The notes below the pieces were generated by a model that worked only from the letters and a program-made list of their open reading frames with translations, made no database searches and was not told the DNA's origin. DNA of 64,000 bases from Patescibacteria group bacterium (GTDB lineage Bacteria > Patescibacteriota > Patescibacteriia > Patescibacteriales > JBAZCA01), in NCBI GenBank assembly GCA_041671125.1, contig JBAZCA010000004.1, forward strand, positions 87,029-151,028. The letters are read 5' to 3'. Position numbers and translations under genes: made by a program. Shown here piece after piece: positions 4,290 through 38,952 of this stretch (positions are counted from its first letter, which is position 1; each line of letters begins with the position of its first letter).

Positions 4290-7200
4290 ATGGTTGGAAA
4301 AAAAGAAAAAAACAATAAGGTTATATCACTTTTGGTAATGATTTGTTTTTGCTTTTCAGTATCGGCGTCTGTTTTTATTTTCCCATTTTTTTCCCCTGAA
4401 GCAAAAGCGCAGAGTATAGGTCTCGAGGGAGCTACCTCGGAATTGGGGGGAATTGCCGCCGGAATGGGAATCACGGTTAAAGATCCTGGCGTAACGGCGG
4501 GGGTAGATAAAAATTATTTAGAGACTGCTACCGGCTGGCTGATGGATAGAGCGAGGGAAAATTGGAGAGATATGCTCTTTAACGCTTCCGCGCTGGCCTT
4601 TAAATCGGGTCTGCGGTTTTTTTTGAATGAGTTAGCTTACAACAGCGCCGTGTATCTCGCGACCGGCGATAAAGGGCAGACTCCGATGTTTTATACCGAT
4701 AGCTGGAAAGACTACCTGATAATGGCGGCGGACGGGGCGGCCGGCATGTTTTTAGATAAAATGGTAACGAATATCGGCAGCGCGACTGGCTGGTGGCAGA
4801 ATTTCAGCATTTGCGATCCGAATATAAACGTAAAAATTATGATCGCCCTCGGCCTCCGGCGGCAGATGTATGAGAGGCCGAGATGCACTTTTTCCCAGCT
4901 AACCGAGAATTGGGAATCCAAACTTTCCAGCCCGACTTTTTTAAATGATTTCCAGAATATGTTTAATCCCTGGGAGAGTGATATGGGAATCGCCTTAACC
5001 ATGCAGGCCGGAAGCGTTGATTACGCCCAAAAAGCGAAGGAGAATGCGACTTACCAGCGGCTGACAAACGATTTTAAGCCCATAACGGAAAAGATATCGG
5101 GATTTATAAAGAGTCCTTCCAGGGCGACGATGAAAGCCTTTGACAAGCCGATTGACGATTCGGACGCGCCGGAAAAAATATTCACCGGTTCTATGGCGGC
5201 GGATGCGATTGATATTTTTATCAGCACGTTAATCGGAAAACTGTTTGAGCAATGGCTGATGTCGGGGCTCGTATCCGAAGTGCCTTCCACTGTTGATTTG
5301 AGTAATCCGGAAATTGAAGCCTTAAATGATGATATTGAAGCCGCTAAAGAAAGATTTAGAAAATTAATAGAACCGCAGTTCGGCACGCGCGGCGATTATG
5401 ACATTTTAGTTGATTTAACATCCTGTCCGGATCCGTCTAAGCCCGGGCCGACCGATTGTGTGATAACGGAAAAATTTCGGCAGGCCGTCGCCAACCGGCT
5501 GACGGTCAAGGCGGCCATGGATCAGGGTTATCTTAATAAAAACGGAGTTTTCGGGTTCATCGCCGGAAAAAGCCTTGAGCCGAAGTTTGAAAACGGAGAT
5601 TATCCTTACCGTAGCCTCGTCATTTTAAGAAAATACCGGATTATTCCGGTCGGCTGGGAAATTGGCGCCCAGTATATAAAAATGGATAATCCTCAGGGCG
5701 GGAACGACCAAGGCAAGAATATCACTTTAAAGGAGATGGCGGAATGTTTTGAGGCTGATGACAACGTTGAAGGCTACGAAGAGCCTTGGTGTCGGGGACT
5801 CGTTGATCCGAATTGGGTCTTAAAGGCGCCTTTAAATTATTGCAAAAAGCTCGGTTACGGTCCGGAAATAATTTCAAAATCAATTACCGGCGATGGCGAT
5901 TCCAGCAAGACTAATATTTCAAGGAATGGCGATTATTGCGCTGACGAGCAGTCCTGCGTTAAAGAGAATTTTGACGGTTCCTGCCAGGTTTACGGCTATT
6001 GCTCCGAAGAGCGGAGAACCTGGAATTTTAATAACCGATCCTGCGATCCGAAATATAATACCTGCGAAATTTTTCGCTCGCGTTCCGGCAATACGGCTTC
6101 TTACCTTGAAAATACCCTGGACTATAACGGCTGTACGGCCGATAACGTCGGCTGTCTTGGTTATTGTAAGACCGAAAATTATGTTCCCGGCGTAAAAAAT
6201 ACGTCTTTTGTAATTGAGCAGGATTATGACGCCGGAGGAGGAAAGATTAGAACCAGGAAATGGGAACTCCCGGCGACTTTCCAGAATAATCAGACCGCCG
6301 CGGAATTTTATGGTTACCGGGACGCCCATTCGCTAATGGATAACCAATGGATTGTAAAAGCTGACCGGAGCGAATTTTTCATTCACTATAATACGGTTAC
6401 CGGAATATCCAGCATCGGCTGGCTCCATGACAAACCGCAACTGGTAAAGTGTCAGGCTTATATAAAACATCCGGAAGATCCTTATGACTCTCAGAGTGAA
6501 AATGACTGGTGTGTTGATTCCGCCAATCCAGGAGCCTGCGGTAACGGAGAAAATTGGCAGACGGCCGACCCTTCAGCTAACTGTTTTGATTTTGTCGAGT
6601 ATTGTAAGACCCATGAAGACGACAGATCTGACGAGGTAAATTGCGACGGCGGGGAAGCGGCGCTCGCGTTTAGTAAAATTACGGCCGGTAACAAAGTCGC
6701 GGTAAGGGATGACGCTGGAGACGCTAATAATAGCGGAATAGGAAATGAAATAAAACAAGGAGACAACTGGGAGGAAGGATGGACTAAAAAAAATACCGAC
6801 GGCGGCATGATTGAGATGCCGTCCGGGAACTGGGAAGTTGAGATCGCTCCGACGCTTACAGCCGGAATAAGCGAATTGGTTTTTGCTTATGAAGGAGGAA
6901 TGCTGGACGCGAGCCAAGGGTTTAAAGTGGTTTTGGGCGGAAGTAATTTGCCGTTTAGAATTAAGTCCAGCCCGGACACTTTAAGCGGAGAATGGCAATG
7001 CGAAGGAGCTAAAGATAAAATTTATTTTGACAAGGACGCGGAAAAATGCGATTCCGGAAACGAGGGTTGCCATGAATTCATAAGAACCAAAGCCGGAATC
7101 GGGGCGAACCTCCTTATCAATTCCGGGTTTGAGGATTATCTTGATATCGGCGGATGGGATAAATGGGGAAAAGCCGATTCTGATCGGAGAAGCGGGAGTA

Positions 7201-14479: not shown

Positions 14480-17218
14480 ATGTTTAATATTACTGAAAAG
14501 AAAAATAAATTTTATAGTTTTATCCATCAAAACAGGCGGATTATTTTTTCGTTCGCAGGGAGTATTTTATTATTATTTGTCGCGAATAATACGGCGTATG
14601 CCGTTGATAATTCTTCTGGTGTGCTTGGAACGGTTTCCAATGCGGTAGGCGGAGTCGTGGCGACGCTCATCGCCATAATCGCGTTGCTGGTTTCTTCCGC
14701 GCTCGGGCTTTTATCAACCCTGCTAATCCAAGTTTTGATCAACATAGCCAGCTATAGCAGTTTTACGGGCGCCCAAGCAGTTATAACTGGCTGGGTTATT
14801 ATTAGGGATATATGCAACATGTTTTTTATATTAATTCTCTTAATAATCGCTTTTGCTACGATTTTAAGGGTTGAAAGTTATAATATAAAAAAAACTTTGC
14901 CAAAACTGCTTATAATGGCGGTGCTTATTAACTTTTCCAAAACAATTTTCGGTTTAATAACTGATTCAGCCCAGATAGTCATGATGACTTTTGTCAACGC
15001 TTTTTCCCAGGGGGCGGGGTTTTTTGTAAATATGCTCAATATTGTTGACATATATAAAGGAGTAGCGTTATCAGGCACCGGATGGGAGAATTGGAAAGTA
15101 GCAGCCACACTAATATTGGCGGTTATTGCTTCCATAGTCACGGTCATCATATTAGGGGTAATGATAGCGGTGCTCACAGTAAGAATTGTGATGATTTGGA
15201 TTTATACGATTTTTTCGCCTTTGGTATTTTTAGGCTTTGCTTTTCCGCCTATTGCTAAATATACCGGCCAGATCTGGCAGGATTTTATTAAGCAGGTAAT
15301 AGTCGGACCGGTTCTGGCGTTTTTTATTTGGCTGGCTCTAACTACCCAGCAAAGCACTCCGTTAGTAAATCAAACGACCGTATGCGCAGGAGTGGCCGAA
15401 TTTTTTTGCGAAGGAAATTTTCAAAAATTTATCATAACCATCGGCCTTTTAATGGGCGGGATGATGGCCGCCCAGCAGATGGGCGGGGCGGCGGCGAGTA
15501 TCGCCGGGAAAGGTTTAAATTGGGCGAAAGCGGTGGCGGGTACTCCAGGAAAATTGGCGCTCGGAACACCGGGCTGGGTGGCTGGTAAAATAAAAATGGG
15601 GGCATTTTCGGATTTATTGGCAACAAAGAAAACAGTGGATGTTCATGATGAAGCGGGAAATGTTATCGGCCAAAAGACGAAATATGTCGGAAAAAAATGG
15701 AGCAGGGGAGTTGGAGGCGCGCTGGCTAATTTTGCTTATGGACTGGAATTAAATCCAGTGAATATGTATAAGGGTATTAAGGAGGGGTTGGCTTCAAAGA
15801 CTGAAAAAGACAAGATGAGGGGAATCGTCGCATCCTCAGACGCCTTAAAAGGTGGTGGAGTTTTGGGTTTAGTCAAAGGACTCGGGGTTTCCAGAGATAT
15901 GACCGAGGCGCTGGCGCATGGATTTTTTTGGGCGGATGGATTTAAGAGAGTGATAGCGGTTGCCAGAGGAACGGATAGAAAGAGAATGGGAATTTCCAAG
16001 GAACTGGATAAAGCTTTTGCGGAACAAAAGGCTCTGGAGAAAGACGGAAAATATTCCAAATCGCAAATTGACGGGCAGAGAGAAAAAGCTATGGATGCCA
16101 AGGAGCGCTATGATAATGCTGATCGGTCTGCCACTTCTCCGGAAGAATTAAATAAGCTGGTAGAAGCGGCAAAAGAAGAGAATAGAATTCTTAAAGAAAT
16201 GGAAGCGAATTTTGATAGTGAAAAAGATAATAAAGTTTCATTAAATAATAATAAAATAGAACAGCTAAGAACGGACATGACTCATTACCGGCCGATTCAG
16301 ACCTTCTACGCTGATCGCGATCGGGACGCTTTAATTTCGCAGACCCAGCAAAAATTAGGCAATACTAATAATGAAGATTTATTGAAAGAATTGTTTAAGA
16401 ACGCAATTGCCAATAAAGACCGGGAAGCGGCGGCCGCTATTATGCTTCATGCCGCCCGAGTTGGGCATCTAAACGAAATGATCCATTCTTGGACCTCAAA
16501 GAAAGACGTTAAGGAAGAATATATTGATGAAAATGGTAACAAGAAAGAGAGAATAGTAATTGGCGAAGGTAAAAAATTACATCAAAGCGGGTTGGGACTG
16601 AATGAATTAGTTAACCAAGCGCTTATTAGCGAATTAGGCATGAGTGAACAGCAGGCTTACGCAGTGCAGGCGGACGCGAGCATGTTGGCTAAATCAGTTG
16701 GTCATTTTAATATGGCTGAAACTATAACTTCCGAAAACGGACGTTTGAAACAATTAAGCCAGGCAAATCATATGGGAAGAATCAGGGGAGAGGCGAGAAA
16801 AGTTGATGCTAGAACGTATCTTAGGAATTATAACCGGATAGCCCATGGAGACGAAATAGAAGCCGAAGACGGCTCAGGAAGAGATTTTAAAATCAATGAT
16901 CTCGGTTTCAGAACATTTCTGGAAAACCCTGGAGCTTACAGATATCTTGTTCTCAGGAATGAATTTAATAAAAATGCGGCTATGAATATAGCCAGAGATA
17001 AGAAGCGTTTGTTTGAATTTGTAGATAAATTAAAAGGGGCGGGAACGGAGACATATTGGGATGAATATGAGAAGAAAGAAGTCTCTTATAAGGATGTAGC
17101 CGATTCTCTTGTTAAATACGGAGAAATAATCAGTAAGACTTCCGTAGGAGAAGGTAAAGAAAAGCTAGGAGTTGATGAGGCTATAAAACAAATGCGAGAA
17201 TCCGGAGCTAAGAGTTAA
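14480..17218 (+). CDS. Polytopic membrane protein (about 8-10 TM) with ~500-aa charged coiled-coil-like C-terminal domain; possible VirB6/TrbL-like channel component
   Basis: N-terminal signal-like helix followed by many hydrophobic helices up to about aa 330, then a long K/E-rich soluble region. The VirB6-like call is topology-based only. Confidence 0.55.
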   Translation: MFNITEKKNKFYSFIHQNRRIIFSFAGSILLLFVANNTAYAVDNSSGVLGTVSNAVGGVVATLIAIIALLVSSALGLLSTLLIQVLINIASYSSFTGAQAVITGWVIIRDICNMFFILILLIIAFATILRVESYNIKKTLPKLLIMAVLINFSKTIFGLITDSAQIVMMTFVNAFSQGAGFFVNMLNIVDIYKGVALSGTGWENWKVAATLILAVIASIVTVIILGVMIAVLTVRIVMIWIYTIFSPLVFLGFAFPPIAKYTGQIWQDFIKQVIVGPVLAFFIWLALTTQQSTPLVNQTTVCAGVAEFFCEGNFQKFIITIGLLMGGMMAAQQMGGAAASIAGKGLNWAKAVAGTPGKLALGTPGWVAGKIKMGAFSDLLATKKTVDVHDEAGNVIGQKTKYVGKKWSRGVGGALANFAYGLELNPVNMYKGIKEGLASKTEKDKMRGIVASSDALKGGGVLGLVKGLGVSRDMTEALAHGFFWADGFKRVIAVARGTDRKRMGISKELDKAFAEQKALEKDGKYSKSQIDGQREKAMDAKERYDNADRSATSPEELNKLVEAAKEENRILKEMEANFDSEKDNKVSLNNNKIEQLRTDMTHYRPIQTFYADRDRDALISQTQQKLGNTNNEDLLKELFKNAIANKDREAAAAIMLHAARVGHLNEMIHSWTSKKDVKEEYIDENGNKKERIVIGEGKKLHQSGLGLNELVNQALISELGMSEQQAYAVQADASMLAKSVGHFNMAETITSENGRLKQLSQANHMGRIRGEARKVDARTYLRNYNRIAHGDEIEAEDGSGRDFKINDLGFRTFLENPGAYRYLVLRNEFNKNAAMNIARDKKRLFEFVDKLKGAGTETYWDEYEKKEVSYKDVADSLVKYGEIISKTSVGEGKEKLGVDEAIKQMRESGAKS

Positions 17219-23890: not shown

Positions 23891-23976
23891 GATGACCTGC
23901 CTGCCGGCAGGCAGGTTTGCTCACCCGCAAAGAGATCCCTCGCCTTTCGGCTCGGGATGATTTGCTCACCCGCAAA
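23891..23976. repeat. GC-rich repeat cluster: 20-bp perfect palindrome plus 16-bp direct repeat
   Basis: cctgcctgccggcaggcagg (23896-23915) is a perfect palindrome. tttgctcacccgcaaa occurs at 23916-23931 and 23961-23976. Confidence 0.75.
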
Positions 23977-29538: not shown

Positions 29539-30354
29539 ATGCTGGAACCCTTAAAAATTGACAGATTAAAAAAAATTTTTAACCGCTTCGGCGCCAATCT
29601 CCTTGACGCGGTATTTCCGGTTGAATGTTTTGGTTGCGGGCGGGAAGGTGAATGGGTTTGCCCGGACTGTTTTAAAGACCTTGCCTATAAGGAAAAACAG
29701 TATTGTCTCGGTTGTAAAAAAGAAAACCGCTTTGGCGAATTCTGCCCCGGGTGCGCTGGGGATTATTTTTTAGAAGGCGTGCTTATCGCTGGGGATTATG
29801 ATAATGAGCTTCTTTCCCGGACAATCAAAAATGTAAAATATCATTTAGTCAAAGACGCGACCGGTTATCTCGGGAATTATCTGGCCGCTTTTTTAATTAA
29901 TGAAATCAATAAGGCCAAAGTGGCGGCCATTAACTTAAAAGAAGGCCGGATCTGGGAAAAATTATCCGGCGCTTCGGCCGCCCCCGGATTCTTTTTTAAC
30001 CCGGATGAAGCAATGATTATTCCGGTTCCGCTTTCAAAAAAGCGTGCGAGAACCAGAGGTTTTAACCAGGCCGAGTTAATGGCCGGCGCTTTAACAAAGA
30101 GGTTGTCATTTAGCGTGGAAAGCGGATTTCTTAACCGGGTTATCCATAAAATTCCCCAGGCTAAGTTAGGCGAAGAAAAAAGAAAGAAGAATGTTTCAGG
30201 CTGTTACGCCTGGGTCGGAAGAAACTTGGACGGCAGGGGAGTCGTGTTAATTGACGACGTCGCGACGACCGGGGCGACTTTAAACGAATGCGCGCGGATC
30301 TTAAAAGAAAACGGCGCCGGAGAAGTTTGGGGTTTAGTAGTCGCGAAGGGGTGA
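29539..30354 (+). CDS. comFC: ComF-family (ComFC) phosphoribosyltransferase-domain competence protein
   Basis: N-terminal double CxxC zinc-ribbon (CFGCGREGEWVCPDC, CLGCKK...CPGC). PRTase motif VVLIDDVATTGATL. Confidence 0.8.
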   Translation: MLEPLKIDRLKKIFNRFGANLLDAVFPVECFGCGREGEWVCPDCFKDLAYKEKQYCLGCKKENRFGEFCPGCAGDYFLEGVLIAGDYDNELLSRTIKNVKYHLVKDATGYLGNYLAAFLINEINKAKVAAINLKEGRIWEKLSGASAAPGFFFNPDEAMIIPVPLSKKRARTRGFNQAELMAGALTKRLSFSVESGFLNRVIHKIPQAKLGEEKRKKNVSGCYAWVGRNLDGRGVVLIDDVATTGATLNECARILKENGAGEVWGLVVAKG

Positions 30355-30361
30355 GAAATAA

Positions 30362-30383
30362 TTGGTGCACTCGCGAGGAATCG
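30362..30383 (-). repeat. 22-bp duplicate of the tRNA-Arg 3' end (T-loop/acceptor/CCA)
   Basis: ttggtgcactcgcgaggaatcg is identical to 30467..30488. Confidence 0.9.
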
Positions 30384-30466
30384 TCCGGCATGCGCCGGAC
30401 GCCCAGCGAACTTGTCGGGCGCATGCCCGATGCTGGGCGAACCTGCACCTTGAGGATTAGTGTTAT
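30384..30466 (-). other. GC-rich structured spacer between tRNA-Arg and its duplicated 3' end
   Basis: On the minus strand: CGCCCAGC...GCTGGGCG helix enclosing hairpin CGGGC-ATGC-GCCCG, followed by hairpin TCCGGC-GCAT-GCCGGA. Clearly more GC-rich than the surrounding sequence. Confidence 0.6.
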
Positions 30467-30467
30467 T

Positions 30468-30542
30468 TGGTGCACTCGCGAGGAATCGAACCTCGATTAC
30501 CAGCTCCGCAAGCTGATGTCCTATCCGTTGAACGACGAGTGC
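30468..30542 (-). tRNA. tRNA-Arg (anticodon GCG), CCA encoded
   Basis: Manual fold of the reverse complement: GCACTCG TC GTTC AACGGATA GGAC A TCAGC TTGCGGA GCTGG TAAT CGAGG TTCGATT CCTCG CGAGTGC A CCA. Confidence 0.85.
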
Positions 30543-30585
30543 TTAAATAAAGACTCTGCCATTTTTTGCGAGGCAGAGTTTTTGA

Positions 30586-31185
30586 CTAGAGTTTAAAAAG
30601 CCGGGCCAGACCTTCCGACGCCGGCGGGTGCAGGCGATCCAGATCCTCCGGCAGGTATTTTAGCAGAGTATCGCGAATTGGCAAGGGGTTCATGTCCAGG
30701 AGCGGAATGGAGAGCCGGTGTTTCAAGGGGTTTTTAAATTCAATATAGAGGTTTTTAATTTCTTCCCGCGGTTTGTAAATTATGGAAAAATCTTTTAAAT
30801 CGTCGTAATCGTAGAATTTCCGGCCGACAATAACGCCTTCGTCGGTTATGGTAATGGCAACGAGATCCGGCTCCCGGCCGTCGTTTAAGATTATGACAAT
30901 GGCGCCGATTATTACGATAAGAGCGAAAAGGAAGTTTGGCGAATAAGAGATGCTAAAAGGGAAGAAGCTCACGGAAAAGAAAGACGTAACCAGAAGAAAC
31001 CCCCCGGCGATTAAGGCCCAGGTGTACCAATGTTTGGTTCGTTCGTGTTTATCGTATTCCGGCACTTCCCAGCCGATAAGCCCTTCGGCGTGACTAATTT
31101 GCCCATTCTCTCCCTCCATATTTTGATTGACATTTAAGGCTTTATTTAATATAGTTATTATAGCAAAATAGCCTAAAACAGACAA
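30586..31185 (-). CDS. Membrane protein (two TM helices plus C-terminal soluble domain), function unknown
   Basis: 199-aa ORF. Hydrophobic segments WYTWALIAGGFLLVTSFF and FLFALIVIIGAIVIIL. Confidence 0.5.
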   Translation of the reverse strand: MSVLGYFAIITILNKALNVNQNMEGENGQISHAEGLIGWEVPEYDKHERTKHWYTWALIAGGFLLVTSFFSVSFFPFSISYSPNFLFALIVIIGAIVIILNDGREPDLVAITITDEGVIVGRKFYDYDDLKDFSIIYKPREEIKNLYIEFKNPLKHRLSIPLLDMNPLPIRDTLLKYLPEDLDRLHPPASEGLARLFKL

Positions 31186-31214
31186 CAGTCTGTTTTCTTT
31201 AGTCTATCTATCCG

Positions 31215-31301
31215 GGAGAGGTGCCTGAGCGGTCGAAAGGGGCACCCTGCTAAGGTGTTAGGTCTTAACGGGCCTCGAGGGTTCGAATCCCTCCCTCTCC
31301 G
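31215..31301 (+). tRNA. tRNA-Ser (anticodon GCT), no encoded CCA
   Basis: Manual fold: GGAGAGG TG CCT..AGG G GCACC CTGCTAA GGTGT, long variable arm, GAGGG TTCGAAT CCCTC CCTCTCC G. Confidence 0.9.
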
Positions 31302-31341
31302 CATGGAAATTTTCAATTGTCAATTTACAATCGGCAATTGT

Positions 31342-31372
31342 AAATCTTGAGGGAGAGATGCCAGAGCGGTCG
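31342..31372 (+). pseudogene. 5' fragment of a tRNA-Ser-like gene (acceptor strand, D-arm, start of anticodon stem)
   Basis: GGAGAGA TG CCA GAGCGGTCGAA TGG G GCAG, then the tRNA fold breaks off. Confidence 0.6.
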
Positions 31373-31389
31373 AATGGGGCAGATAAATA

Positions 31390-31476
31390 TTTTTAGGGCG
31401 GAGGGGTGCCTGAGCGGTTTAAAGGGACAGTCTTGAAAACTGTTGAGCCTTTACGGGTTCCGCGAGTTCGAATCTC
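31390..31476 (+). tRNA. tRNA-Ser (anticodon TGA), no encoded CCA
   Basis: Manual fold: GGAGGGG TG CCT..AGG G ACAGT CTTGAAA ACTGT, long variable arm, GCGAG TTCGAAT CTCGC CCCCTCC G. Confidence 0.9.
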
Positions 31477-31576
31477 GCCCCCTCCGCCCTGAAAAGTGCC
31501 TTGTCCGCCAAAAGGCGCCCAGCCAGAGGCGGGCAAGGATCCCTGTCCGCCAAGTGCGGACGCCTCGGGCGGAAAA
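31477..31576 (+). other. GC-rich structured spacer downstream of tRNA-Ser(TGA)
   Basis: 11-bp helix CCTTGTCCGCC / GGCGGGCAAGG, hairpin GTCCGC-CAAGT-GCGGAC, hairpin CGCC-TCG-GGCG. Confidence 0.6.
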
Positions 31577-31627
31577 ACTGCTGAGCCTTTACGAGTCTCG
31601 TGAGTTTAAACCTCACGCTCTCCGCCA
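31577..31627 (+). pseudogene. 3' fragment of a tRNA-Ser-like gene (anticodon-stem 3' strand, variable arm, T-arm, acceptor, CCA)
   Basis: ACTGC TGAGCCTTTACGAGTCTC GTGAG TTTAAAC CTCAC GCTCTCC G CCA. Closely parallels the 3' half of tRNA-Ser(TGA), but the T-loop is non-canonical. Confidence 0.6.
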
Positions 31628-31631
31628 ATAG

Positions 31632-31662
31632 AAATAAATCCTAATATTAGGATTTATTTTTT
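31632..31662 (+). terminator. Rho-independent terminator after the tRNA cluster
   Basis: Perfect 14-bp palindrome aaataaatcctaat/attaggatttattt followed by a T run. Confidence 0.75.
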
Positions 31663-31824
31663 AGCGGTATGATATAATGAAAAATATGACCGGAAATTTT
31701 ATTTATCCTTCAGAATTTTGTGTTGGGTTATTTTTTAAATTTTGGCGCTTATTCCGTTTATCTGGTAAAAAATGTTTTTCTAATTCAAAATGTTTGGATT
31801 ATAAACTCCCATGAGGAATTGATA

Positions 31825-38922: not shown

Positions 38923-38952
38923 AAACCGCCCCGGCGCATGCCGGGGCGGTTT
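38923..38952. terminator. Bidirectional GC-rich terminator hairpin between convergent genes
   Basis: aaaccgccccggc gcat gccggggcggttt (13-bp stem), with A/T runs on both sides. Confidence 0.75.

Follow-up and report, generated by a model that had tools for sequence, protein, structure and literature searches.

Here, we describe a tRNA-Ser(UGA) gene that lies inside the remains of another tRNA-Ser gene in a Patescibacteria group bacterium. The window, meaning the whole 64-kb stretch of contig JBAZCA010000004.1 that was analyzed, contains only three transfer RNA (tRNA) genes called by ARAGORN and Rfam: tRNA-Arg(GCG) on the minus strand, tRNA-Ser(GCU), and tRNA-Ser(UGA) (Table 1). The last of these, B, is flanked by an outer 5' half (A') and an outer 3' half (C) of a tRNA-Ser gene, and a GC-rich hairpin module separates it from C. 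Our preferred reading, to which we assign a probability of about 0.78, is that the locus is what remains of a small mobile cassette, now without a nuclease gene, that had inserted itself into the resident tRNA-Ser(UGA) gene. In function the feature is ordinary, a pseudogene surrounding a gene that works, but its form is unusual; it is valuable for bringing a recurrent, apparently undescribed type of element to light. An original prediction, made from the letters of the sequence, had noticed all of the parts that it described correctly but placed most of them about 10 nt too low, with the 5' fragment at 31342-31372 and the intact tRNA at 31390-31476. It also began the 3' fragment too late: the outer copy resumes at the stub CCTTG, with the hairpin module inside its anticodon.

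Table 1. Features of the interrupted tRNA-Ser locus and of the neighboring tRNA-Arg locus, in window coordinates.
Feature	Position	Strand	Basis or remark
Promoter-like site TTGACA-17-TATAGT, upstream of the tRNA cluster	31127..31155	+	Consensus scan, 11/12 match
Intact tRNA-Ser(GCU), resident allele, upstream neighbor	31215..31302	+	ARAGORN; Rfam 56.3 bits
A', outer 5' half GGAGAGATGCCAGAGCGGTCGAATGGGGCAG, positions 1-30 of the former resident tRNA-Ser(UGA)	31352..31382	+	Alignment with relatives
Leader of inserted unit (ATAAATATTTTTAGGGC)	31383..31399	+	Inverted repeat, 17 nt, 94% complementary
B, intact inner tRNA-Ser(UGA), foreign allele	31400..31486	+	ARAGORN 31399-31489; Rfam 57.7 bits
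Trailer of inserted unit (CCCTGAAAAGTG), pairs with leader	31487..31498	+	Identical to L105
Stub CCTTG, outer tRNA positions 31-35	31499..31503	+	Filled-site versus empty-site alignment
GC-rich hairpin module between anticodon positions 35 and 36	31504..31573	+	Alignment with L105; 64% G+C
C, outer 3' half: former resident tRNA from position 36 onward, with CCA	31574..31627	+	Decayed
Terminator-like perfect 14-bp AT-rich hairpin, then T run	31632..31659	+	Inverted-repeat search; folding
Intact tRNA-Arg(GCG)	30468..30542	-	ARAGORN; Rfam 58.4 bits
Stub of partial second tRNA-Arg copy (variable region and T-stem 5' strand, ...AGGTTCG)	30438..30459	-	Sense-strand reading; pattern scan
Twin hairpin in T-loop of partial tRNA-Arg: GGTTCG / CCCAGC..GCTGGG CGTCCGGCGCATGCCGGACG / ATTCC	30382..30437	-	56 nt
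Duplicated tRNA-Arg 3' end (CGATTCCTCGCGAGTGCACCA), far end of interrupted copy	30363..30383	-	21/21 identical to intact gene

A' contains the acceptor 5' strand, the D-arm, and the GCAG of the anticodon stem, and the 3' fragment proper, CTGC...GCTCTCCGCCA, spans 31578-31627. As originally claimed, the outer acceptor strands (GGAGAGA and GCTCTCC) pair at six of seven positions, GCAG pairs with CTGC, and the outer T-loop reads TTTAAAC. The unit inserted behind A' consists of a leader, B, and a trailer, and the last 10 nt of the leader pair with the trailer (TTTTTAGGGC / GCCCTGAAAA) and so add 10 bp to the acceptor stem of B. The original prediction had overlooked this extension, as well as the duplicated 3' end of tRNA-Arg. 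Leaders of a related kind (AAT-AATAT...) are found in L018, L087, L089, and L095; no convincing -35 partner to the conserved AAT-AATAT box was found for a promoter inside the leader. The spacer that follows the inner tRNA is indeed GC-rich (64% G+C, compared to 45% for the window) and contains both of the structures that had been read in it, an 11-bp helix (CCTTGTCCGCC, 31499-31509, with GGCGGGCAAGG, 31528-31538) and the hairpin GTCCGC-CAAGT-GCGGAC (31545-31561). A terminator had been predicted beyond the 3' fragment, and a terminator-like hairpin with a T run lies there, unflagged by a terminator scan that demands G+C. The promoter-like site is likely, to judge from its consensus match, the start of a single transcript spanning tRNA-Ser(GCU), the nested locus, and the terminator. 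No open reading frame (ORF) was found inside the 195-nt Ser insert or the 84-nt Arg insert.

About 80 loci from metagenome-assembled genomes (MAGs) share the gene order tRNA-Arg, small membrane protein, tRNA-Ser(GCU), tRNA-Ser(UGA). The flanking membrane protein was used to retrieve relatives, and in the two closest, L007 and L004 (92% and 78% identical in that protein), this place is occupied by one tRNA-Ser(UGA) gene, which is intact. Its halves match the fragments in the window (30 of 31 nt for A' in both relatives), and the same CTGC closes its anticodon stem; the likeness is far above chance. Because the orthologous UGA gene is intact in L007 and L004, the split gene is the resident UGA gene, and the possibility that it was another Ser isoacceptor (GGA or CGA) is ruled out. 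The ancestral gene is one intact tRNA-Ser(UGA), as persists in these relatives, and the original view, in which a single former tRNA-Ser gene left its two halves on either side of an intact one, is borne out.

A third relative, L105, lies at a comparable genomic distance (flanking genes 78-86% identical) and carries the interrupted form. When filled and empty sites are aligned, its resident gene is complete but for two clean insertions: 116 nt (leader, whole tRNA-Ser(UGA), and trailer) between positions 30 and 31, and a 31-nt twin hairpin (TCCGCCAAAAGGCGGA-TCCGCCTCGGGCGGA) between anticodon positions 35 and 36. A 5-nt stub, TCTTG, is left between the two insertions, and the layout in the window is the same. 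This retained stub rules out a loss of TCTT(G) at the junction; it reads TCTTG in L105 and in the intact gene, compared to CCTTG in the window. The window's hairpin module is an enlarged form of the L105 twin hairpin, with about 41 extra nt that are a partial inverted and tandem duplication of the stub plus hairpin. An assembly artifact is excluded by several independent sequences. An NCBI MAG contig assembled independently (L113) is identical to the window over 3534 nt, the insertion at tRNA-Arg is reproduced in two Logan contigs from other runs (L002 and L003), and L105 and L091, which come from other samples, carry the same cassette as the window.

Sequence comparison leads us to infer that the inner tRNA is the functional gene and that the outer halves persist as decaying remnants. 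In silico deletion of the two insertions from L105 gives an 88-nt tRNA-Ser(UGA) accepted by ARAGORN, and the same removal in the window yields no outer tRNA that ARAGORN recognizes. The outer copy in the window has a C31-A39 mismatch, an A7-G66 mismatch, the T-loop TTTAAAC, and a broken variable arm, and the outer halves of other loci are mismatched (L095), indel-bearing (L018), or re-interrupted by D-loop hairpins (L087 and L095). Wherever the flanking sequence is adequate, the interrupted copy is joined by an intact tRNA of its own type, with the partial contig L093 as the one exception. The inner tRNA resembles the inner tRNAs of other cassettes (89-90% identity) and the L005 type (92%) more closely than the resident lineage (77%), and this identity matrix marks it as a foreign allele. 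The reconstructed outer gene of L105 is 95% identical to those of L007 and L004. The decaying remnant of an insertion that the original prediction preferred is thus supported by comparison with relatives.

Alternatively, the composite could be a functional RNA, in which the outer halves form a tRNA-like scaffold, or a split tRNA-Ser that seryl-tRNA synthetase (SerRS) could charge in the absence of an anticodon, that presents the inner tRNA and the hairpins for processing or for a non-translational role; a variant is that the insertions represent a new kind of intron. Compared to shuffled sequence, the nested Ser unit has a much more stable predicted fold (z = -6.55), in which the outer acceptor strands pair and an extended stem carries the inner tRNA. 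It has a single promoter-like site and a single terminator, its leader-trailer helix covaries among loci, many outer 3' halves end in CCA, and the outer tRNA of L105 is perfect apart from its insertions. In addition, SerRS does not read the anticodon. However, the damage to the window's outer copy, its failure with ARAGORN, and the state of the outer halves in L095, L087, and L018 are difficult to reconcile with a working product, and the closest relatives do without the composite. Reliance on an interrupted copy alone is seen in no adequately sampled locus, the partial contig L093 being the only exception. No intron or ribozyme model matches, and we regard this explanation as extremely improbable.

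The original prediction had left room for an interrupted, spliced, or permuted tRNA and had pointed to group I introns and ribozymes. The intact gene at the same place in close relatives and the failure of the window's outer copy to score as a tRNA argue against a split functional tRNA, and the Rfam scans answer the second point. Rfam at gathering thresholds and a permissive scan (E up to 10) of 30300-31750 and six related loci gave tRNA-derived matches only, with no group I core, and an intron or ribozyme was rejected. Sub-threshold matches to sX4 (RF02223) and Plastid-psbl-rps4 (RF04351) occur wherever a tRNA-Ser lies, including 31395-31577; both models evidently hold tRNA-Ser-like sequence, so such matches are not independent evidence for a small RNA. 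The halves of the split or permuted tRNAs of archaea and algae are the sole source of the tRNA and are joined via a bulge-helix-bulge (BHB) motif or a circular intermediate, whereas here an intact tRNA lies between the halves; the BHB motif was not searched for.

Comparison of the window with L105 indicates that the cassette spread laterally and recently. A', leader, B, and trailer are identical at 146 of 146 nt (31/31 in A' and 17/17 in the leader), as are the first 17 nt of C (17/17), compared to 61% identity in the remainder of C. Outside this block, identity is 78% in the adjacent tRNA-Ser(GCU), 73% in the spacer, and about 45%, which is essentially unalignable, in the outer flanks. It is the contrast between the 146/146 match and the 45-78% identity of the flanks that points to recent lateral spread. 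The same site is filled in the window and L105 and empty in L007 and L004 at comparable genomic distance, and this pattern of filled and empty sites is at odds with relatedness. A sharp-bordered block of identity within old tRNA halves would be the expected trace of gene conversion with short co-converted flanks.

The architecture recurs in dozens of other loci from metagenomes and MAGs. The same nested design is found in L018 with different sequences and with compensatory changes in the leader-trailer helix. A metagenome scan for the 3' junction motif, with GGCGG fixed and the resulting set biased toward one second-hairpin sequence, recovered 26 loci, 25 of which combine a stub, a twin hairpin, and a 3' half; the remaining one is a chance match. 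The rule in the 25 loci is a stub (GTCTTG or GTCTCG), the twin hairpin, AAAAC, and the 3' half of a tRNA-Ser(UGA or CGA). Had the fragments been simple debris, a possibility raised originally, relatives were expected to lack them; the closest relatives do, but the widespread recurrence of the architecture favors a specific mobile element over random debris.

A small GIY-YIG ORF lies 43-348 nt upstream in 13 of the 26 motif-found loci (Pfam PF01541, E = 1e-16 to 1e-17). The solved structures nearest to this nuclease are the UPF0213 proteins 1ywl and 1zg2, and it falls below the threshold for the group I intron endonuclease family. Viral contigs gave no match to the junction motif and the nuclease matched no PHROG family, and a viral origin was rejected. 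In the fullest loci (L103 and L094), copy A (positions 1-35, a twin hairpin, and positions 36-43) comes first, then the nuclease gene, then an intact tRNA (copy B), and lastly copy C (positions 29-35, a twin hairpin, and the remainder from position 36). A T-loop version reads ...GGTTCG, twin hairpin, AATCC..., nuclease gene, intact tRNA (L008, L038, and L086). L105 contains a second replacement event, in which a disrupted resident Ser(GCU) is followed by a GIY-YIG ORF and then by an intact foreign Ser(GCU); the intact tRNA-Ser(GCU) of the window has the same anticodon and variable arm as that disrupted copy. A tblastn search found no GIY-YIG nuclease gene in the 64-kb window, whereas the gene is present in homologous elements elsewhere.

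Two approaches that did not depend on the junction motif gave a similar picture. A scan for adjacent perfect GC-rich hairpins in 585 kb of retrieved sequence found 38 twin hairpins, about 35 of them in tRNA-derived sequence and always within a loop: the D-loop (GGCT/GAG or GGTTG/AA), the anticodon loop (CTYG/AAAAC), or the T-loop (TTCG/AATCC). Five nuclease homologues were chosen by protein similarity alone, from Elusimicrobia, Omnitrophota, Pseudomonadota, Microgenomates, and an unclassified Logan contig. In four of the five, an intact tRNA (Ser, Pro, or Trp) starts 12-110 nt past the end of the ORF, and in three a clearly hairpin-interrupted partial copy of the same tRNA lies on the ORF's other side; the tRNA-Pro locus has a short fragment and no clear interrupted copy. 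The fifth homologue adjoins SmpB and a probable transfer-messenger RNA (tmRNA) region. The hairpins vary in sequence and keep their structure: at least six different fully paired first-hairpin stems and several second-hairpin stems were found, the stems covary across loci, and L107 and L099 contain perfect 30-nt double palindromes. One T-loop twin hairpin is 40/42 identical between a tRNA-Arg (L033) and a tRNA-Ser(GCU) (L038).

Individual loci add further detail. In L118 and L119, the nuclease family stands beside tRNA-Trp(CCA), with a hairpin-interrupted 5' copy upstream, and in L115 beside tRNA-Pro(GGG), so that the targets extend beyond Ser and Arg. Both hairpin types occur in one locus in L116, where a 5' copy with an anticodon-loop twin hairpin and a near-complete copy with a T-loop twin hairpin precede the nuclease gene, which is followed by an intact tRNA-Ser(CGA). 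In L117 (a Microgenomates MAG, at about 620-1200), the GIY-YIG homologue follows smpB and about 580 nt of non-coding DNA that holds GGTTCG... and ...TCCACC pieces and in which ARAGORN finds no tmRNA; this region may be a tmRNA gene hit in its T-loop. L098 (about 120-480) has three tandem repeats of a promoter-like leader, a tRNA-Ser 5' copy (1-35), the twin hairpin, and positions 36-44, all upstream of an intact tRNA-Ser(CGA), the GIY-YIG ORF, and a C copy, and L104 has tandem ORF-C units; these repeats suggest local amplification around the elements. Tandem units of ~227 nt in L025 (about 4500-4900, oriented as the window) each open with the last 19 nt of tRNA-Ser(UGA) and include a reversed T-arm segment and very GC-rich sequence, broken by a scaffold gap of Ns. 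Many nuclease homologues are found on contigs of 500-2000 nt, as if assemblies break at repeat-bearing tRNA loci, and such breaks would lead to under-counting of the elements in MAGs.

The tRNA-Arg locus represents the T-loop version of the element in the window, without an ORF. The stub of its partial second copy begins 8 nt downstream of the intact gene, and the repeated last 21 nt of the tRNA are separated by 84 nt; the partial copy ends beside the stop of a comF-like gene. The second hairpin matches that of L008, which belongs to a GIY-YIG-linked T-loop insertion in Ser(GCU), at 18/20 nt and shows a compensatory pair change. The Ser and Arg modules (64% and 62% G+C, compared to 45%) are the only two such loci in the window. 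No further full-length copy of either module was found when the window and 80 loci were searched by short-word BLAST; the only matches were one of 26 nt to L008 and motifs of 13-14 nt. The original claim that the Ser and Arg spacers are one tRNA-associated element type is upheld by the comparative data. Their kinship stands on hairpin type and insertion logic, but the 8-mer that they share, CGCCCAGC, is weak on its own: it recurs at 15469, and its census was uninformative, with occurrences scattered through coding DNA. A census of TGTCCGCC led to the tRNA-associated hairpins. In the relatives L004, L020, L033, L035, and L065, other spacers and hairpins occupy the same place downstream of tRNA-Arg.

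A different interpretation, which bears on the Arg locus in particular, is that these loci are scars of integrase-mediated integration, in which a phage or island entered a tRNA gene, left an att duplication, and later lost most of its length. The breakpoints in the anticodon and T loops agree with known integrase preferences; Williams reportedly described in 2002 a preference of integrases for these loops of tRNA genes. The intact tRNA-Arg and its identical downstream 3' fragment (21/21 nt) form a textbook attL/attR pattern (PMC9897764). However, no integrase was found in or near roughly 120 loci examined, the GIY-YIG gene being the only recurrent ORF, and the inserts are always tiny (30-350 nt) in dozens of independent genomes. 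An integrase scar would also have to accommodate the common 5' fragments and D-loop breakpoints, the conserved, structured twin hairpin located exactly within a loop, and the Ser locus, where a whole foreign tRNA is nested between a 5' half and a 3' half with no att duplication. We consider this origin highly improbable.

Hairpins without a tRNA partner also occur in the window. A perfect 12-13-bp GC-rich palindromic hairpin (AAACCGCCCCGGCGCATGCCGGGGCGGTTT) lies between two convergent genes at 38923-38952, and its core, CCGGCGCATGCCGG, is the same as that of the second hairpin of the tRNA-Arg module; it could be either a bidirectional terminator or a solo hairpin element. The palindrome ACCTGCCTGCCGGCAGGCAGGT, at 23895-23916 in the intergenic space that separates an EamA-like gene from the following ORF, contains a CCTGCC..GGCAGG motif that also appears inside the copies downstream of tRNA-Arg in L005 and L007.

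These terminator-like single hairpins of the same type at 38923-38952 and 23895-23916 are among the observations expected if the hairpins were autonomous miniature palindromic elements, similar to REP, MITE, or mitochondrial double-hairpin elements, that strike exposed loops of tRNA genes and survive only in redundant copies. The tRNA duplications and the foreign tRNA would then have arisen separately by recombination, duplication, or transfer, and the GIY-YIG gene would be a passenger or unrelated. The presence of several hairpins in one dead copy (D-loop and T-loop in L105, D-loop and variable region in L033), the secondary expansion of the window's module, and the many hairpin loci without an ORF agree with this explanation. 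Yet the twin hairpin is placed, in nearly every locus, exactly where the element meets the displaced piece, and not in random loops. Independent insertion also does not account for the GIY-YIG ORF in half of the motif-selected loci, for the homologues chosen by similarity (four of five next to a tRNA, three of those with clearly interrupted copies and one with a short fragment), or for an intact copy regenerated exactly at the junction. On balance, autonomous hairpins seem to us an unlikely explanation.

Returning to the preferred reading of an invading cassette, we can propose how such an element might move. A UPF0213 nuclease would break a naive tRNA gene at a loop motif (YYG/AA, or in the T-loop the SegB motif GGTTCG/AATCC), and repair would copy the element, with some flanking tRNA sequence, from the filled allele. 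As the element carries the missing tRNA segment or a whole tRNA, one intact gene would result and the host would survive, while the twin hairpin would cap the junction with the displaced piece and split the target motif there. The copy in the window would have lost its nuclease gene and be either immobile or reliant on a nuclease in trans, and its whole-tRNA unit at 30/31 would probably have arisen from an A - ORF - B - C ancestor by secondary deletion. We place nuclease-driven homing as the mechanism at roughly even odds. Tentatively, and with confidence falling just short of even, we speculate that UPF0213 nucleases drive a new class of mobile elements in the D-, anticodon-, and T-loops of bacterial tRNA genes, keeping their hosts both alive and reliant on them and causing a gene-drive-like turnover of tRNA alleles in Patescibacteria and other phyla, with two decayed footprints in the window.

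Several points weigh against the cassette reading and its mechanism. The window has no nuclease gene, so there is no sign of current mobility. UPF0213 proteins (80-95 aa) lack the DNA-binding domain used by SegB and I-TevI, and to our knowledge none of them has been assigned a cleavage activity or a target by experiment. The intact copy keeps the loop sequences of the disrupted copy, leaving the immunity of the working gene unexplained, as it is for SegB in T4. The 116-nt unit at 30/31 (CAG/TC) breaks the YYG/AA rule, so that some other mechanism must be invoked unless a deletion followed the insertion. Covariation of the leader-trailer helix (AGGGC/GCCCT, AGAGC/GCTCT, AAAGC/GCTTT) is left unexplained by the model and hints at a constraint at the RNA or DNA level. 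The multiple hairpins in single dead copies (L033 and L105) suit independent parasites accumulating after the death of the copy equally well. Finally, no sampled allele is more than 81% identical to the window's 3' half, the history of which is only partly reconstructed.

For annotation, the inner gene is to be treated as the working tRNA-Ser(UGA) and the outer pieces as pseudogene debris, with no call of a split or intron-containing tRNA. If the link to the nuclease is true, it would provide a function for UPF0213, a large family of unknown function, make horizontal replacement of tRNA alleles visible in genomes with a single copy of each, and explain why many short contigs of the Candidate Phyla Radiation (CPR) break at tRNA genes. 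The element also offers putative compact, loop-specific nucleases and a natural insertion that carries a substitute for the gene it destroys. The recurrent architecture, a partial tRNA copy split in a loop by a twin hairpin, often with a UPF0213 gene and with an intact copy alongside, is seen for tRNA-Ser, tRNA-Arg, and tRNA-Trp, with a weaker case for tRNA-Pro, in several phyla, and is apparently undescribed. In the literature that we covered, which is incomplete and leaves a prior description possible, we found none of tRNA-in-tRNA nesting, of twin hairpins in tRNA loops, or of a link between UPF0213 and tRNAs.

Known systems resemble this architecture in part. Group I introns interrupt the anticodon loops of bacterial tRNAs, sometimes with a homing endonuclease, whereas here there is no group I core, the insert holds a whole tRNA, the exons in the window are decayed, and an intact copy lies nearby in all adequately sampled loci but one partial contig. 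CPR rRNA genes contain non-intron insertions at the tips of stem-loops, some of which encode GIY-YIG proteins and many of which are <200 bp and uncharacterized (PMC11270868). These affect structural RNA genes of the same bacterial radiation and, like the elements described here, are neither group I nor group II introns; they differ in that they are presumably removed or tolerated in the RNA. A term search found no tRNA genes, twin hairpins, or compensating gene copies in that paper (PMC11270868).

GC-rich hairpin elements include the double-hairpin elements of Allomyces, the GC clusters of yeast mitochondria, and the repetitive hairpin-forming elements of sponges (PMC2800124, PMC4478555). Like the twin hairpins, these mitochondrial elements are short G+C-rich units of one or two adjacent stem-loops in an A+T-richer genome, keep their structure while their sequence varies, show insertion polymorphism, enter loops of RNA genes, and sometimes lie near endonuclease elements. 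They are found mostly in intergenic regions, introns, and variable rRNA regions, and specificity for tRNA loops is not known there, whereas the hairpins here are confined to disrupted tRNA copies and linked to UPF0213. The likeness is one of design only, and no sequence homology is expected. Fragments of tRNA genes left by integrase-mediated integration are well known (PMC9897764). The att duplications of integrated elements flank inserts of 9-121 kb, compared to tens to hundreds of nt here with no integrase. An intact tRNA at one end with an identical 3' fragment at the other is seen at tRNA-Arg (21/21 nt) and not at tRNA-Ser, and the 5' fragments, D-loop breakpoints, in-loop hairpins, and whole replacement tRNA (at Ser) set the present loci apart.

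By analogy, the closest known likeness appears to be the homing-type element of phage T4 that encodes SegB. SegB is a free-standing GIY-YIG endonuclease encoded in the T4 tRNA cluster, with a 27-bp site in tRNA genes centered on GGTTCRANTCC; it drives the inheritance of its tRNA region, and the tRNA genes of T4 itself keep sites (PMC2330249). It is a two-domain protein that has the NUMOD3 DNA-binding motif in common with I-TevI (PMC2330249), whereas members of the present family are single-domain UPF0213 proteins of 80-95 aa in cellular, mostly CPR, genomes. Twin hairpins, tRNA-regenerating partial copies, and tRNA-in-tRNA nesting are not reported for SegB. Since the window has no nuclease gene, it would hold at most a degenerate derivative. 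The likenesses are nonetheless several: a GIY-YIG gene amid tRNA genes, presence/absence polymorphism among relatives, replacement of the recipient's tRNA region by that of the element, and the retention of potential sites. Co-conversion of flanking sequence, as expected of homing, is matched by the 146/146 and 17/17 identity between the window and L105 against 45-78% outside. Cleavage of a SegB-like site would be in keeping with the insertion points, which share YYG/AA in tRNA loops, and with the T-loop type, in which the twin hairpins split the very motif that SegB recognizes (GGTTCG/AATCC).

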